This document shows, in pieces, positions 14,042 through 42,235 of a DNA stretch of 64,000 nucleotides (positions are counted from its first letter, which is position 1; every line of letters begins with the position of its first letter). Position numbers and translations under genes: made by a program. Origin of the DNA: a virus (lineage: Duplodnaviria > Heunggongvirae > Uroviricota > Caudoviricetes); the IMG/VR virus record IMGVR_UViG_3300032318_002198, one strand, 5' to 3'. The notes below the pieces were generated by a model that had not been told where the DNA came from, ran no database searches, and was given only the letters and a program-made list of their open reading frames with translations.

Positions 14042-14475
14042 TCACATAACAACTCGTGAATGAGTTGTATTTTCATTCGATTATTTTTTGAAGATAATGT
14101 TTGTTTCAAATTCTGATGTAAAGGCTTTGGCCAAGCATTGAAATTACACCATGCATATGCGGAATGCTCAAAATTCAATATGGGGATAAATTCTTTGTCA
14201 ACTAACAGAATATATGTATTATATTGAAAATTAAGATCCTTAGAAATAAACAATTCTAAAGGAATTATTTTCTTAATTTTAGGAATATGCCCTATTTCCT
14301 CACTGATTTCTCGATTCAATCCATCGATTAAAGTGTGATCATGGGGCTCTTTCTTTCCGCCGACAATACTCCAAATACCCAATGTTTTATTTGAAGTTCT
14401 TTGTAAAAATAGAAAACGTTTAGTATCTTGGGATAAAAATAACCCACCACTGCAAATTATAATACTAGCCTCCAT
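14038..14475 (-). CDS. NUDIX hydrolase
   Basis: GGKKEPHD...LNREISEEIG Nudix box. Confidence 0.8.
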   Translation of the reverse strand: MEASIIICSGGLFLSQDTKRFLFLQRTSNKTLGIWSIVGGKKEPHDHTLIDGLNREISEEIGHIPKIKKIIPLELFISKDLNFQYNTYILLVDKEFIPILNFEHSAYAWCNFNAWPKPLHQNLKQTLSSKNNRMKIQLIHELLCD

Positions 14476-15848
14476 AACAGTTGATCGTATACACCTTCAA
14501 AACTCTTGCTCCAACTACCATTGGACCATTTATATTGAATTCCTGTATATGAATTAGTTATATAAGTTACTGTTGAAGTTTGTGTAGAATTGAAAACGAT
14601 ATTCCAACTAGTTCCATTCCATTCTATAATATCATTCGCATATGCTTGAAAGTCTGTACCAGATGAATTTTTCCAAGCATCTGGCCCATCATATCCAAGA
14701 GTGCCGAACTTATCATTGATATTAATATCCTCTAATATCAAATATCTTATACCTGTTGTTTTATTAATCGGATTAAAAGTTTCGGGATTAACTATTGCAT
14801 CAACCGTGCCTCTGCCACTGATAATTGTGTTAGTAGGCACAGTATCAGAATCAATATTCAAAAGCATTTTTGTATCATCGTAAGGATCTAAACTTACATA
14901 TGCAACGATCTCAGTATTATCTGGTTTAGTAAATCTTAATTGACTCAATCCTGCTTTAAATTTTCCTGGATACATGTCCAACAATCTATACCACGATCCT
15001 TTGTTTTGGGGAAGACTGACGTCAATTTCGCCACCCTTACCGTTTCTTTTTATTAAGGTAGCAACATTGTTTAATACCAACAAATCATAATTTCCAGGAG
15101 TAACAACTATTTTTTCGTCAGGTCCGTCTAAAAATTCGACCATATTAGGATCTATAAAATTAGATTCAATAGTACCCGGAGCAATTGCATGAATATTAGC
15201 AATAATTTTTGTGATAATACCTAACTTTTTAATTTTTGCAGGAGGAGTAATCCATATAGGAGCAGAAAAAGTCAATGTTAAAATATCGATATCCTGTTCC
15301 AGTCCTTGTGGAATAGATCTACTGCTCCAATTTTGACCAGTTAGTTCTAATAAACTTAAACTAGTCCAATCAATATAATTATCCGTTGATTGAATTTCTA
15401 AACTAGGATTGAACAATACTACAATTTGTTCCCATAGTTGTAATTTTTGATCGAGATTGGTAGTCCACACATCGGCATTAAATGTAGCCAAATATGGCGT
15501 AGGCATCAGTCTTTCGACAGTGTAGTTTGCTCCTTGAACATTTAAGTATTCGTCATTAGCAGAGTCGAATTCTCTTTCTCGTATTTGTAACTTGCTTACA
15601 AAAGTTGGATCTTGCATTCGTGGACGATCAAATTGTAAATCTTTTATATAACAAGCAATAAACGGAGCACTAGGAATTGTGTTTTCTGAATTTTTCCTTA
15701 AGATTTGTGCAACTTGACGATTCATATCGCCATACCTAACAGGAATTTGAACTAACTGTCCTTTAGCATCCTTATAACTAAAATTGCTCATCGCTCTCAT
15801 AAATTGAGTAAGATAACGCCGACACTGCGAATCGTAAAAATAATCGAT
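14457..15848 (-). CDS. Tail sheath stabiliser/terminator (T4 gp15-like) with C-terminal extension; probable non-ATG (ATC) start
   Basis: gp15-like QIPVRYG, ERLMPTPY, KLQLWEQI..LFNP. The open frame extends 16 codons above the track ATG to ATC-GAT-TAT-TTT-TAC (IDYFYDSQCRRYLTQF), resembling the gp15 N-terminus. Confidence 0.7.
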   Translation of the reverse strand: MDYFYDSQCRRYLTQFMRAMSNFSYKDAKGQLVQIPVRYGDMNRQVAQILRKNSENTIPSAPFIACYIKDLQFDRPRMQDPTFVSKLQIREREFDSANDEYLNVQGANYTVERLMPTPYLATFNADVWTTNLDQKLQLWEQIVVLFNPSLEIQSTDNYIDWTSLSLLELTGQNWSSRSIPQGLEQDIDILTLTFSAPIWITPPAKIKKLGIITKIIANIHAIAPGTIESNFIDPNMVEFLDGPDEKIVVTPGNYDLLVLNNVATLIKRNGKGGEIDVSLPQNKGSWYRLLDMYPGKFKAGLSQLRFTKPDNTEIVAYVSLDPYDDTKMLLNIDSDTVPTNTIISGRGTVDAIVNPETFNPINKTTGIRYLILEDININDKFGTLGYDGPDAWKNSSGTDFQAYANDIIEWNGTSWNIVFNSTQTSTVTYITNSYTGIQYKWSNGSWSKSFEGVYDQLLWRLVL

Positions 15849-15863
15849 GATTGTACAGTGGTA

Positions 15864-16400
15864 TTAAACCACAGCCTCCTTGTCTAGCCATACTCTTTTA
15901 CCGTTAATAACTTTCCAAGTTTTTCCAGTATAATGTTGTGCTTTTAAATGTGCTTCTCGGTTTTTTTGTTTGTGTTCTTCTGAACAAATTTTACCTTTCA
16001 TAGGACCTCCGTCTTTTCTTTTCCAACCGCCGTCTCTTCCTTCTGATTTTCTTTTAGCATGTGCTAGCCTTTGTGCTTCCTTCATACGTTCGATACTATC
16101 AGGGCTGTGTTTTTTATTGTTCCCTGGTTGTCTAATATTGTAATCATTATTAATAGAATCATATTGCAAAACATATTTTTCTTCTAATAAATTTAATTCT
16201 TCTATTGAACTAGCAGTATCAATGACTTCCCATGTAAATGCATCTATACCGTATTTTCTCAATGCATTATGAAAATAATATGTTTTAGTTGAATGCTTGC
16301 TATCATTAATATGTTCGTATCTTCGTCGATTAGGATGCTGAATAGATTGACCTATATAGCATTTTCCAGAGTCTTTATGAGTCCATTTGTAAATGTGCAT
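15864..16400 (-). mobile_element. Free-standing GIY-YIG homing endonuclease with NUMOD3-like repeats
   Basis: HIYKWT...CYIGQS...RR.EH...ALRKYG...E...YN; KKHSPDSIERMK and GKICSEEHKQK. Confidence 0.85.
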
Positions 16401-37880: not shown

Positions 37881-39330
37881 AATTGAGATCATCGACGAAG
37901 TTAATGTTAAAATATCAAATTTAGATTTAGATACTAGAAAATTCTTAGTTAAGAAATTTAAATACGAAGATCCAACTGCAAGGTATCGCCCAGCATATAA
38001 GTTAGGTAGATGGGACGGTACTGTTAGTTTTTTTGGGTTAGGCGGAACTACCTATCTCTCAATGTTACCTACAGTATTAGAGTACCTCGAAGAGAGAAAT
38101 TATACAATTGAACTAGAAGATAAAAGAAATCCAATATCATTGTCATTTGATCATATAAATGAGGAATTTTGGGGGGATAAAGTATGGCCCTCGGGGCATC
38201 AACTCGAAGGCAAACTTATCAGACTAAGAGATTATCAAATAGATGTAATTAATAAATTTTTAGAAAATCCACAATCTATACAATCGGTATCAACAGGAGC
38301 CGGCAAAACTATCATAACGGCTACTTTAGCAAAAATCTGTGAGAAATACGGTAGAACAATCACTATTGTTCCTAATAAAAGTCTTGTTGAACAAACCGAA
38401 GAAGATTTTATTAATTGTGATCTTGATGTTGGAGTTTATTACGGAGATAGAAAAGACATTGGAAAAACTCATACAATCACAACTTGGCAAAGTTTAAATA
38501 TCTTAGATAAAAAAGCGAAAGATCTTCCGGCAGAAAAATTAAAATTAGAAAATTTTTTGTCCAACGTTAGTGCCGTTATTGTTGACGAATGTCATGGTGT
38601 AAAAGCCGATGTATTAAAAAATCTATTAACAAATCAACTATCTCACGTATTTGTTCGATGGGGTTTAACAGGAACTATACCCAAAGACGATATTTCTTTT
38701 ACAAATCTTAATGTTTCTTTGGGAGAAGTAGTTAATAAAGTCAGTGCTAGTAATTTACAAGAACAAGGAGTTCTTTCCAAATGTAATGTAAATATTTTAC
38801 AATTTTTAGAATATCGAGAATTTAATAGTTATGCCGAAGAATTAAAGTTTTTAGTTACAAATCAAGAAAGATTAGATTATATTGCCGAATTAATTGATCA
38901 AACTTCAAAATCGAGCAACAGTTTAATTTTAGTAGATAGAATTGAAACAGGAAAGTACTTACAATTACAAATAAAAGATAGTGTTTTTATTTCAGGTCAA
39001 GTAAAAACTAAAGATAGAAAGTCTGAGTACGATGAAGTTAAAACAGCACAAAATAAAGTAATTATCGCTACCTATGGAGTTGCGGCCGTTGGTATAAATA
39101 TTGTTAGATTACACAATTTGTTTATGATTGAACCCGGAAAAAGTTTTATAAGAGTAATACAGTCTATTGGACGAGGATTACGAAAAGGACATGACAAAAA
39201 TCATGTCGAAATATATGATATTACATCTACATGTAAGTTTTCTAAAAAACATTTAACTGAACGAAAAAAATATTATGCCGAAGCCAACTACCCTTACACC
39301 ATTAGAAAAATCAACTATTCTTCAACATAA
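37867..39330 (+). CDS. uvsW: SF2 DNA helicase
   Basis: LRDYQ, TGAGKT, DECH, GLTGT, QSIGRGLR; TTG start after AGGGAG. Confidence 0.88.
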   Translation: MPVCKIEIIDEVNVKISNLDLDTRKFLVKKFKYEDPTARYRPAYKLGRWDGTVSFFGLGGTTYLSMLPTVLEYLEERNYTIELEDKRNPISLSFDHINEEFWGDKVWPSGHQLEGKLIRLRDYQIDVINKFLENPQSIQSVSTGAGKTIITATLAKICEKYGRTITIVPNKSLVEQTEEDFINCDLDVGVYYGDRKDIGKTHTITTWQSLNILDKKAKDLPAEKLKLENFLSNVSAVIVDECHGVKADVLKNLLTNQLSHVFVRWGLTGTIPKDDISFTNLNVSLGEVVNKVSASNLQEQGVLSKCNVNILQFLEYREFNSYAEELKFLVTNQERLDYIAELIDQTSKSSNSLILVDRIETGKYLQLQIKDSVFISGQVKTKDRKSEYDEVKTAQNKVIIATYGVAAVGINIVRLHNLFMIEPGKSFIRVIQSIGRGLRKGHDKNHVEIYDITSTCKFSKKHLTERKKYYAEANYPYTIRKINYSST

Positions 39331-41017
39331 AGATAAGTTACTTAATCTCCGATTATTTAAAAAAATAAAAAATTTTTTAAATACATTAGGAATTGAGAAA
39401 ATTGACCAAACAGAATTATATGATTTATTGTTCAATTCATCGCTTAAAAATTGTAACAATTCTAAATTTGTGTCGTTTTCAGTAGGTTATCGGGCATGCG
39501 AAAAAGGATGTGAATGTTATTTAAAAAATCTTTCAAATAAGATATCAACTATAAAATCAACAACAACTGTTGAGCAACAAAAAGAAATTAATGAAAAAAG
39601 AAAACAAACTACTTATCTCAAGTATGGGGTAGAAAATGTATTTGCACTCGACGATATAAAAGAAAAGAGCAAACAAACTAAAAAATTAAAATATGGAGAT
39701 GAAAATTATCGCAATGATCAAAAAATAATAGAAACTAATATTAAAAAATATGGTGTCGATAATCCAATGAAATCGACCGAAATTAGAGAATTGTATTATA
39801 AAGATTTTATACTTAGAGATTTTGCTGCATCTGTTAGAAAAGCTAAACAAACTAAAAAATTAAAATATGGAGATGAAAATTATCGCAATGATCAAAAAAT
39901 AATAGAAACTAATATTAAAAAATATGGTGTCGATAATCCGTCAAAATCTCTGGTTGTACAACAGAAAATATCAAAAAATCTTAGATCTACCTTATATGAT
40001 AGAACTGTTGAAAGATATTCTTCATTTATAAAACCGCTGTTCGATAAAGAAAAATATTTAAATGGTTTATCTAATTCTTGGGAGTGTGTTAGATGTCAAA
40101 CCATATTGACGGGTTCTATTATTAACGGCATTATTCCGAGATGTCAGACATGCTTTCCTTATTCAATATCCAAATTTGAGTTAGAGGTTCGAGATTTTTT
40201 GAAAACATTAGTGAATCCTGATCTTTTAATATTCAATGATCGAACTTTAATATCTCCTCAAGAATTAGATATAGTAATTCCATCTAAACATCTTGCATTT
40301 GAATGCAACGGTGCATATCGACATTGCGAAAATTCCGGATTAAAATATAGAAATTATCATCTTAATAAATCTACTAATGCCACTAAATCTGGTTATTCAT
40401 TAATGCACATTTTAGATGTTGATTGGTATCATTCTCAAAATATTGTTAAATCTATGATTAAACATAAACTGGGGTTGAGCACTCGTATCGGCGCTAGAAA
40501 AACTCGATTAGTTACATTGACCCATGACCAAGCAATTAAATTTTTTAATTCAAATCATCTTCAAGGCGGTATTCCTGCGCGAATAACATATGGATTACTT
40601 GTCCAAGATCAAATTGTTGCAGCCATGAGTTTCTCAAAGTCTAGATATACAACCGATGCAACATGGGAAATTATCAGATTTTGTAATAAAAATGATCATG
40701 TTATATTAGGAGCAGCATCGAAATTATTAACGCATTTCAGAAAAAATCATTCGGGTTCTATATTAACATATGCTGATAGGAGCTTTGGTTCAACAAATTT
40801 TTATGAAGAAATTGGATTTTCGTATTTGTCAGCATCTCCTCCGGGATATCGATATTATAAAGATGGCTTATTGTTTTCAAGGATTCAATTTCAAAAACAT
40901 AAATTATCGAACTTATTACAAGAGTATGATCCAAATAAAAGTGAATGGGAAAACATGCAAAATAATGGGTTTGACAGATTATGGGATTGTGGAAATTCAA
41001 TATTTGTATTAAAATAA
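39275..41017 (+). mobile_element. Free-standing Hef-like homing endonuclease with KYGVDNP repeats
   Basis: KYGVENV/KYGVDNP repeats, CxxC, ELDIVIP...FECNG, ARK...NHLQG...RFC...YAD...LWDCG; overlaps the uvsW 3' end. Confidence 0.7.
39671..39939 (+). repeat. Exact 95-bp direct repeat (39671-39765 and 39845-39939)
   Basis: Identical aaacaaactaaaaaatt...gtcgataatcc encoding KQTKKLKYGDENYRNDQKIIETNIKKYGVDNP. Confidence 0.9.
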
Positions 41018-41045
41018 GAATATTATAATAATTAAGGAGACTAAC

Positions 41046-41549
41046 ATTCAGATTCTTACCCTTGAAAATCAACCGTATTATCTTAATAATTTACCTGATG
41101 AAATTGTAGACGATTTAAGATTTGCTGTGCTTGATAATAGTGATAATCAAAATCCAGATCACTTTTTTGTTCCATTGATATTTCTTGAAAGTTTTACAGG
41201 ACCTGCTGTAGTCCTCCGAATAGGACCACATGAACTTACTATGCCATTGGATTGGTGTGCAGTTGTAGGCGATCCAGAAGGACCGGACATGGAAGTTTTA
41301 CCTCTTACAAGTCTAAACGATAGAGGATTTAAATCTTTCTGTTTTAATCCAGTGAGCAGTTTTAGACCTCAATTTTTGGATATAGATATTATAGATATAT
41401 ACCAAGATGTAAAATGGTATTTTCCTAAAATGCGGCCCGGACAAATATTATGCACACCTTTGGAAAATAAAGAAAAACCCGTCTGTGCCTATTTTGTTAA
41501 GGAAATTAGCAGACAAAGTGAATTAATAGACTATACAAAGTGTTGGTAA
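41046..41549 (+). CDS. Conserved hypothetical protein; probable ATT start
   Basis: AAGGAGA (41034-41040), 5 nt, then ATT CAG ATT CTT ACC; open frame with no ATG/GTG/TTG until 41127. Confidence 0.7.
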   Translation: MQILTLENQPYYLNNLPDEIVDDLRFAVLDNSDNQNPDHFFVPLIFLESFTGPAVVLRIGPHELTMPLDWCAVVGDPEGPDMEVLPLTSLNDRGFKSFCFNPVSSFRPQFLDIDIIDIYQDVKWYFPKMRPGQILCTPLENKEKPVCAYFVKEISRQSELIDYTKCW

Positions 41550-41550
41550 T

Positions 41551-41790
41551 ATGACAAAAATATACGAAAGTTCCGATGGCGGAAAAACTGTTTATGTCAG
41601 AGAGATGGGCGGAAAAGAAAAGAAGATACACTATGTTAGCCCGTCTGCTGTTGAAGATATGAAAGAAACATTGCTAGTACAAGAATGGATGGAAATACGT
41701 CATGCCGCAGAACGCCATCCGGCCTTGCAAAAATCTGTAGATCATTGTAAACTATTATATAGGATGATCAAATATGGCAGCGACTCTTGA
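41551..41790 (+). CDS. Hypothetical protein
   Basis: IYESSDGGKTVY motif; operon context. Confidence 0.6.
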   Translation: MTKIYESSDGGKTVYVREMGGKEKKIHYVSPSAVEDMKETLLVQEWMEIRHAAERHPALQKSVDHCKLLYRMIKYGSDS

Positions 41791-42235
41791 TATCAAACGA
41801 GAACTCTTAGCAGTAGATACTAAAAACTACGATTTTTATTCTAACTTAACAGACGAAGAACGTAAAGGATTTAGTCCCTATATTCTTATGAGATACGTAT
41901 CTTCAGCTCGCGGAGATCCGGATATCCAGGAATGGTTCGTTGAAATGGTTAACGAATGTATTAATAAAAATCACTGGGATCTGACTAAAAATCACAAAGA
42001 ACTACTTTGGAAATTGTTTGCTGTAACCGGAGTAGGCGTAAGCACTTTCCACCCTTATTTGGCCGCTGGTAAAAAAGAGAAACTTGATAAAATAGAAAAA
42101 CTATTATCAGAACTATATCCAACTTATAAACTTCAAGATATTAAATTTTTAGCCAAATTGATGGATGAAAAGGATCGAGAAGAACTATTTGATAACATGG
42201 GCTTCGATAAAAAACAACGTAAAGAATACGAATAA
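41774..42235 (+). CDS. Clamp-loader small subunit-like (gp62-like)
   Basis: FSPYILMRYVS...VNE...N pattern. Confidence 0.45.
   Translation: MAATLDIKRELLAVDTKNYDFYSNLTDEERKGFSPYILMRYVSSARGDPDIQEWFVEMVNECINKNHWDLTKNHKELLWKLFAVTGVGVSTFHPYLAAGKKEKLDKIEKLLSELYPTYKLQDIKFLAKLMDEKDREELFDNMGFDKKQRKEYE

Follow-up and report, generated by a model that had tools for sequence, protein, structure and literature searches.

A predicted AUU start codon with a strong Shine-Dalgarno sequence at an insertion-prone gene junction of giant phages

Introduction

A conserved gene, referred to here as gene X, appears to begin with ATT directly behind an inserted endonuclease gene in a 64,000-nucleotide stretch of viral DNA (the window). 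This arrangement raises the questions of whether ATT is the genuine initiation codon and why it stands in place of ATG. Known AUU-initiated genes of Escherichia coli are infC, which encodes initiation factor IF3, and pcnB. To our knowledge, curated bacterial annotation contains very few real AUU starts, with two confirmed in E. coli. The initial annotation of the window offered two explanations for a change of ATG to ATT, namely that it made the allele immune to the adjacent Hef-like nuclease or that it tuned expression. Here the locus is compared with its relatives and both explanations are weighed.

Results and Discussion

Organization of the locus

The window comes from an uncultured giant phage that is distantly related, among annotated phages, to Sinorhizobium phage Phosso, Pseudomonas phage PA5oct, Agrobacterium phage Atu_ph07 and the RaK2/121Q group. 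The endonuclease ORF overlaps the 3' end of the helicase gene by 56 nt in a different frame, and its stop codon (41015-41017) is followed by AAGGAG, the spacer ACTAAC and the ATT of gene X (Table 1). The sequence reads as initially annotated, with AAGGAGA and a spacer (6 nt after AAGGAG) before ATT CAG ATT CTT ACC CTT GAA AAT. The annotated closure of the frame at 41010 and the lack of ATG, GTG or TTG for 27 codons are likewise correct; the closing codon is TAA (41010-41012) and the first canonical start-type codon is GTG 41127, codon 28.

Near-cognate starts were counted among the long ORFs of the 64-kb window. Gene X has 38 codons between its upstream stop and its first canonical start, and the sole other start-less leader not explained by overlap or untranslated intergenic sequence belongs to a gp15-like gene at 15848 (21 codons). 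No further clear case was seen in the long ORFs of the window.

The candidate promoter in the 3' end of the endonuclease ORF, TTGTGG-17-TAAAAT, aligns with TTGTAA-17-TAAAAT in the endonuclease-free spacer of a close relative (L174). A scan for consensus promoters listed no site directly upstream of ATT, the candidate at 40987-41015 lying below threshold. RNA folding of positions 41000-41090 gave nothing better than shuffled sequences (z 1.13) and an Rfam search of positions 39000-42000 returned no match, so no leader RNA element is proposed at the 41046 site.

Table 1. Positions of the features discussed, numbered along the window
Feature	Position	Strand	Evidence
UvsW-like DEAD/ResIII helicase gene, 496 aa	37840..39330	+	Pfam ResIII, DEAD, Helicase_C; weak UvsW_N match
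Hef-like free-standing homing endonuclease ORF (predicted activity), intact, 580 aa	39275..41017	+	phrog_3339, phrog_559, Pfam DUF7487, tblastn
Candidate promoter inside endonuclease 3' end, TTGTGG-17 nt-TAAAAT	40987..41015	+	Alignment with L174 spacer (putative)
Shine-Dalgarno AAGGAG, 6 nt before ATT	41034..41039	+	Sequence; duplex energy -9.2 kcal/mol (assumed anti-SD)
Predicted ATT initiation codon, gene X	41046..41048	+	Aligns with homologues' start codon, 83 loci
Gene X, conserved 167-aa jumbo-phage protein, phrog_11279, modelled as Hint fold lacking catalytic residues	41046..41549	+	Homologues, AF2 model, structural matches
GTG, first in-frame canonical start-type codon; internal Val codon	41127..41129	+	Residue 28 conservation
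GIY-YIG homing endonuclease gene, upstream of second site	15864..16400	-	ORF and GIY-YIG-type N-terminal sequence
Second-site SD GGAGG (15879-15875) and 7-pair hairpin (15874-15868 with 15862-15856)	15856..15879	-	Covariation
gp15-like tail sheath stabiliser/completion gene; ATC 15848-15846 matches the Met codon of endonuclease-free alleles	14457..15848	-	tblastn to annotated phages; 80-locus codon tally

Initiation codon of gene X

Comparison with homologues indicates, with high confidence, that ATT 41046 is the real initiation codon of gene X. In a codon-by-codon alignment its counterpart is ATG in Phosso and Atu_ph07 and TTG in PA5oct. Across 83 loci, which comprise these three phages and 80 close IMG/VR relatives (78-86% amino acid identity), the homologous codon was ATG in 70, ATT in five, GTG in four, and CTG and TTG in two each, and ATT was present at this codon in many further metagenome contigs. 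Full-length distant family members, found by a search of 1.8 billion representative proteins, matched at residue 2-3 to residue 2-3 of gene X. Three features of a near-cognate start thus occur together: no canonical start after the upstream stop, ATT at the start position of the homologues and a well-spaced Shine-Dalgarno (SD) sequence.

The codons behind the ATT are conserved as coding sequence. Among 81 close-clade genes, the entropy of codons 2-27 was 0.53, 0.14 and 1.31 at codon positions 1, 2 and 3, respectively, and the same type of conservation was seen in the ATT and CTG alleles alone. Residues 2-8 of these genes were Q (79) or K (2), I, L, T, L, E/D/N and N/D, and the N-terminus that had been given for related phage proteins, M[R/Q]ILTL[D/E]N, was right. 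The dN/dS ratio was 0.06 between the window and L174, both of which have ATT, and comparison of ATT or CTG alleles with their ATG sisters gave 0.01-0.02 (0.01 for L073). These low values show that the ATT alleles are not pseudogenes.

If ATT were not the start, gene X would have to be initiated at GTG 41127 or be reached by readthrough or frameshifting from the endonuclease ORF. That GTG is the earliest canonical start-type codon in frame, and gene callers have placed the start of ATT-start relatives elsewhere than at ATT: the closest relative (P0012) was cut to 152 aa from an internal Leu codon, and P0017, P0036 and P0117 were lengthened to 171-177 aa from upstream ATGs. These public calls are wrong, and database entries of relatives carry the mis-called lengths. 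A start other than ATT is nevertheless very improbable, given the purifying selection on residues 2-27, a structural model of the product that needs residues 1-27 (strands at 2-4 and 10-12), and the presence of the same ATT in the endonuclease-free L174. Homologues do not start at the GTG position; its counterpart in alleles with an ATG start is a conserved internal Val, and at residue 28 the 81 genes have V (76 genes) or I (five). Readthrough is opposed by the different frame of the endonuclease ORF and by the stop at 41010 in the frame of gene X. A +1 frameshift at the endonuclease stop, which would yield an endonuclease-Hint fusion, was considered and rejected, because the sequence there is not slippery and alleles with no endonuclease carry the same ATT. 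A read error, which the initial annotation had kept in view, is ruled out by the identical SD-ATT string in three independent assemblies (L174-L176, from NCBI, ENA and Logan). By analogy with other AUU starts, an N-terminal Met and IF3-sensitive initiation are expected.

Predicted fold of the gene X product

The gene X protein has more than 6600 homologues (phrog_11279) and no Pfam match. An AF2 model based on a 48-sequence alignment was confident and all-beta (pLDDT 93.2), with pLDDT values of 96 and 86 for the first two 10-residue blocks. The top structural matches were all inteins, Hedgehog or BIL domains, the best being the Ssp DnaE intein (1zd7_A; Z 13.0, rmsd 2.6 Å, 134 residues), followed by about 35 further matches at Z 11-13. 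The residues used in splicing are absent: the protein starts with M-Q-I-L, has LTMPLDW at block B and ends in TKCW, and it is encoded by a separate ORF. As modelled, the gene X product is a free-standing, catalytically dead Hint fold and not an intein. Gene X is normally coupled translationally to the UvsW-like helicase, and the helicase as partner of its product is a guess. The 79-aa ORF at 41551-41790 was considered as an equivalent of UvsW.1, an arrangement that would place gene X as a dead intein between two helicase parts, and was discarded for lack of Pfam support.

Insertions between the helicase gene and gene X

A TAATG overlap between the stop of the helicase gene and the ATG of gene X is present in 59 of the 80 close relatives. 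These coupled junctions all have ATG, with no SD core, defined as GGAG, GAGG or AGGA 4-8 nt upstream of the start. The remaining 21 relatives have inserted sequence between the two genes. The inserts include short spacers (about 20-70 nt), several of which contain sigma-70-like boxes; a same-strand HNH gene that took over the native TAATG and rebuilds the native junction, with ATG, at its own 3' end; a 231-235-aa ORF; and an opposite-strand HNH gene. Hef-like genes 38-40% identical to that of the window occupy the same junction in L164, L177/L178 and L180. The junction is a mobile-insertion hot spot, as seen in L004-L083, L164, L174-L182, L194-L199, L210, L235, L236 and L265.

At least five kinds of occupant were recorded at the junction, among them Hef-like genes, HNH genes on either strand, the 231-235-aa ORF and short promoter-like spacers. 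Some same-strand HNH alleles are near-identical to endonuclease-free sisters (a single difference in 498 nt separates L022 from L025; L030/L019 and L053/L046 are also close), which suggests that homing is ongoing. A sister clade about 60% identical (L298, L312, L320 and others) joins the helicase and gene X in a third manner, with the helicase stop TAG lying within the SD of gene X (TAGGAGAACAA-ATG). Separate histories for the helicase and gene X of the window were considered and set aside; the helicase is more divergent everywhere (median identity 66% vs. 81%).

ATT starts were found behind many of these inserts. The closest relatives of the window (L174-L176, 93% amino acid identity) have a 63-nt spacer, no endonuclease and the exact string AATTAAGGAGACTAAC-ATT-CAGATTCTTACC. 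A pattern scan added at least 15 further ATT loci among the matches listed, and the types of junction with ATT number at least 16, covering Hef-like genes, HNH genes in both orientations, an HNH remnant and short spacers. L182 carries an HNH gene 73% identical to one of the ATG type (L022), yet has AAGGAG-ATT downstream; L210 and L236 have ATT behind a 36-aa HNH remnant; and L265 (11 nt, the shortest), L196, L235 and L198 have it behind spacers of 11-60 nt. L179 has kept the native TAATG, which is followed by an 11-codon mini-ORF (MTQYYFDKSNH), AAGGAG and ATT, the stop of the mini-ORF overlapping AAGGAG. This arrangement looks like the scar of an excised insert.

The Hef-like gene and immunity

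The description of the upstream ORF as a Hef-like homing endonuclease inserted at the helicase/gene X junction was borne out by its phrog matches and by the relatives with the TAATG overlap. The 580-aa ORF matched phrog_3339 ('homing endonuclease'; 5e-105) and phrog_559 (5e-80, residues 33-579), and tblastn found genes named 'Hef' or homing endonuclease in Campylobacter and RaK2-like phages. Near full-length membership of the family is combined with presence/absence polymorphism at a fixed junction: the ORF is missing there from all 80 close IMG/VR relatives and from L174-L176. Cleavage and homing activity are predicted from sequence. A search of all IMG/VR sites found no close relative of the protein, the best match being 38% identical.

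Several features of the Hef-like ORFs were recorded. Positions 39584-39948 of the window hold five repeats of about 54 nt, two of them within a 104-nt duplication that is 96% identical, and the repeats encode KYG-type modules in the DUF7487 region. In the window (39275-39330) and in L177 (region 520-700), the Hef-like ORF starts within the helicase 3' end in another frame. In L164 (region 2280-2460), the Hef-like gene has its start at the native TAATG, with initial codons that look like a shifted copy of the end of the helicase gene.

The immunity explanation holds that the enzyme recognises a site spanning the start codon and that the protein-silent change of ATG to ATT blocks self-cleavage. 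Free-standing endonuclease genes of T4-type phages do depend on differences at the target site, and the sequence flanking the donor gene is co-converted (PMC2988022). Gene conversion tracts are present at the 5' end of gene X. HNH-bearing alleles share CAG ATA CTT ACA together with ATT while the rest of the gene resembles another, coupled sister (L073/L054, L036/L046), and similarity between the window and L174 is about 95% over the stretch that runs from 41019 to ~150 nt into the gene and about 87% beyond. Endonuclease-free ATT alleles could, moreover, be resistant survivors.

The distribution of the variant codon argues against immunity. Alignment with endonuclease-free relatives, a check that had been suggested with the claim, gave the outcome that the initial annotation had named as refuting: ATT stands behind the identical SD (AATTAAGGAGACTAAC-ATT) in L174-L176, and ATT was present in the endonuclease-free alleles L006, L265, L196, L198, L235 and L179 as well; the variant base is therefore not confined to endonuclease-bearing alleles. 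ATT accompanies three unrelated types of nuclease in both orientations, whereas ATG is kept beside the Hef-like gene of L164, beside the recent HNH inserts of L022, L030 and L053 and beside the 231-235-aa ORF. Any insertion already breaks the native TAATG junction, which makes a further change needless, and immunity leaves the correlation between start codon and SD strength unexplained. Since ATT is shared with endonuclease-free sisters, the module is no response to the present Hef-like neighbour. Immunity as the reason for ATT is thus unsupported, and we consider it unlikely.

Over its final ~30 nt the Hef-like ORF is similar to the spacer of L174, TTGTnn-17-TAAAAT included, and global alignment of that spacer with the window insert showed clear homology only from 41019 onward. 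An L174-like 3' end of the Hef ORF is compatible with insertion upstream of a promoter already in place and equally with loss of an endonuclease that left its 3' end behind. The pair of alleles with and without the Hef-like gene behind the same start signal provides concrete material for studying the target choice of Hef.

Start codon and Shine-Dalgarno strength

The second explanation in the initial annotation, tuning of expression, fits the relation between the start codon and its SD. Among the 80 relatives and the window, the 59 coupled alleles all have ATG, and the 22 uncoupled alleles have ATG (9), ATT (6), GTG (4), CTG (2) or TTG (1), so that non-ATG starts occur in 13 of 22 uncoupled and 0 of 59 coupled alleles. 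An SD core was present in all 13 non-ATG alleles and in none of the 68 ATG alleles. Mean SD duplex energies, calculated with an assumed E. coli-type anti-SD that may not be the host's, were -1.6 to -2.7 kcal/mol for ATG, -5.6 for GTG, -6.2 for TTG, -7.5 for CTG and -7.8 for ATT, and the value for the window (-9.2 kcal/mol) was the strongest in the sample. The SD is thus stronger as the start is weaker. One HNH family occurs at the same site in two forms, with a weak AAGGT SD and ATG (L022) or with AAGGAG and ATT (L182). Tuning is favoured because of this graded relation and because the HNH cassette exists in both a weak SD-ATG and a strong SD-ATT form.

The non-ATG alleles are scattered on the gene X tree and require at least 10 changes. 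In a conservative test on independent pairs, two to four pairs showed a start-codon change in the predicted direction and none the reverse, the number of supported pairs being too small for significance (median p 0.25). ATG with a strong SD does exist in sister clades of at most 63% identity, either as TAGGAGAACAA-ATG or as TTGACA-17-TATAAT followed by AGGAG and ATG, and the combination is therefore not intrinsically harmful to the gene X family. Two pattern scans, which were samples giving minimum counts, found GGAG with ATT only in the 72-93% clade and GGAG with ATG only in clades of 63% identity or less, among the matches listed. The ATT modules resemble one another (GGAGAAT(A/T)AAA-ATT), and may share a single origin and have spread by recombination, which would leave fewer independent events.

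The gp15-like gene as a second site

The initial annotation reported the same pattern at 15848, where a GIY-YIG gene (16400-15864) precedes the gp15-like tail-completion gene on the minus strand. The common theme stood: at both sites an endonuclease gene lies at the start of a host gene that has a strong SD and a weak start. The details differ, in that the codon matching the Met of endonuclease-free alleles is ATC rather than ATT, and the SD, GGAGG, lies 23 nt upstream of it and is bridged by a 7-pair hairpin whose loop holds the TAA of the endonuclease gene (15866-15864).

Among the 80 relatives examined at this site, endonuclease-free alleles had ATG at the same codon in 29 loci and one codon earlier in 22, and TTG or GTG in five, while endonuclease-bearing relatives had ATA, ATC or ATT in 20 loci and TCG in four. 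Covariation supports the hairpin; four of the seven pairs changed on both sides, and 84.5% of cells were paired compared with at most 60.7% when partners were slid. A distant SD bridged by a conserved hairpin was thus found, as in split ribosome-binding sites, without the AUG start.

The four endonuclease-bearing alleles with TCG at the start position are L137, L141, L142 and L149. Three of these have one extra base in the spacer and a frame that stays open upstream. No plausible start codon was found in the four alleles.

A replacement for translational coupling

From the ATT start, the insertion polymorphism and the relation between SD and start codon, all of which are observed, we infer a low output of gene X, selection for low output and an order of events. 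In the ancestral state the ATG of gene X would have overlapped the helicase stop (TAATG), with no real SD. Any insertion at the junction would break the coupling of helicase and gene X, and displaced gene X in this clade would then be served by GGAG(A), 4-7 nt and ATT or, less often, CTG, GTG or TTG. The 30S subunit would bind the well-spaced AAGGAG in an unstructured A/U-rich leader, and fMet-tRNA would pair with AUU despite the third-position mismatch. The strong SD would be offset by the weak start, so that output would be held in a low range, and the module would persist once the endonuclease decays or disappears.

In E. coli, AUU, AUA, AUC and CUG support initiation at about 1-2% of the level of AUG, or 0.02-3% in a second assay (bioRxiv 10.1101/063800), and IF3 disfavours non-canonical starts (PMC2268962). 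Judged from these E. coli figures (for AUU, roughly 1-3% of AUG), which may not be the host's, the output of gene X from AUU should be low. Overall, a module of strong SD and weak start that replaces translational coupling and outlives the inserts is the reading we favour, and it is probably, though by no means certainly, correct.

A neutral history would account for the same alleles if a spacer with SD and ATT arose once by drift, was moved by recombination and later offered endonucleases the only safe, non-overlapping site to land in, ATT itself not being adaptive. The likeness of the ATT modules, the confinement of GGAG with ATT and of GGAG with ATG to different clades among the matches listed, and the conversion tracts at the gene X 5' end all agree with such hitch-hiking. 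However, ATT has been kept across lineages with saturated synonymous sites (pS 0.4-0.9), although a single T>G change would restore ATG, and the graded SD strength (ATG < GTG/TTG < CTG/ATT) is not expected from drift. The GTG, TTG and CTG alleles also stand in differing SD contexts, which points to several origins at least. We regard hitch-hiking as rather improbable, though a more serious contender than immunity.

The replacement of coupling by a strong SD and a weak start may extend beyond this junction. Endonuclease cassettes at gene starts might routinely give the displaced gene a portable strong SD and a near-cognate start (AUU, AUA, AUC or CUG), which would hold the former coupled low output, create dependence on the cassette and survive as a scar. 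This generalization is tentative and we would not yet bet on it. If it were true, an AUU-type start in a phage or bacterial genome would often be a sign of earlier homing-endonuclease traffic. At the present junction, one gene that toggles between AUG and AUU with junction architecture and SD strength amounts to a natural experiment on the balance of initiation. On the favoured reading, traffic of mobile elements alters the start codon of a neighbour here, and not only promoters as in T4, and the trace outlasts the element.

Comparison with known systems

AUU starts, homing endonuclease genes (HEGs) with embedded downstream signals and split ribosome-binding sites are already known. A literature search for homing endonucleases linked with ATT or non-canonical starts found nothing relevant, and in the literature searched we found no account of insertions that break coupling being answered by a near-cognate start with a strong SD, which both replaces the lost signal and stays behind as a trace.

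The product of gene X resembles inteins, Hedgehog and BIL domains in the predicted Hint fold over residues 1-152. Unlike these, gene X is free-standing and has no exteins, no N-terminal Cys/Ser, no block-B His and no terminal His-Asn.

T4 genes 38 and 25 have split ribosome-binding sites (Nivinskas et al., 1999; Malys and Nivinskas, 2009; as summarised in the review PMC3014915). The likeness concerns the second site only, where an SD 23 nt off is brought near by a conserved hairpin with compensatory changes. The start there is AUC, AUA or AUU and not AUG, however, and the loop holds the stop codon of the GIY-YIG gene; the 41046 site needs no hairpin.

Free-standing HEGs of the T4 type include seg and mob genes and the Hef of phage U5 (Sandegren et al., 2005, PMC1275590, as cited in PMC2988022), and promoters are embedded in T4 HEGs (PMC2988022). 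The present junction is similar in that the insert is intergenic between conserved genes and its ORF overlaps the upstream gene, in that signals of the downstream gene lie in or at the end of the endonuclease gene, and in that several nuclease classes use one site. It differs in that the T4 review (PMC2988022) describes embedded promoters and not a near-cognate swap of the downstream start codon.

Translational coupling through TAATG or ATGA overlaps is the ancestral junction state here and is retained by 59 of the 80 relatives, whereas the window has independent initiation at an SD and AUU instead. Gene X is like infC and pcnB in combining AUU with an SD, and a low, IF3-sensitive output is expected of it. 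It has no evident counterpart of the autoregulatory loop of infC. In contrast to infC and pcnB, the AUU of phage gene X is polymorphic with AUG among close relatives and is tied to the architecture of the junction.
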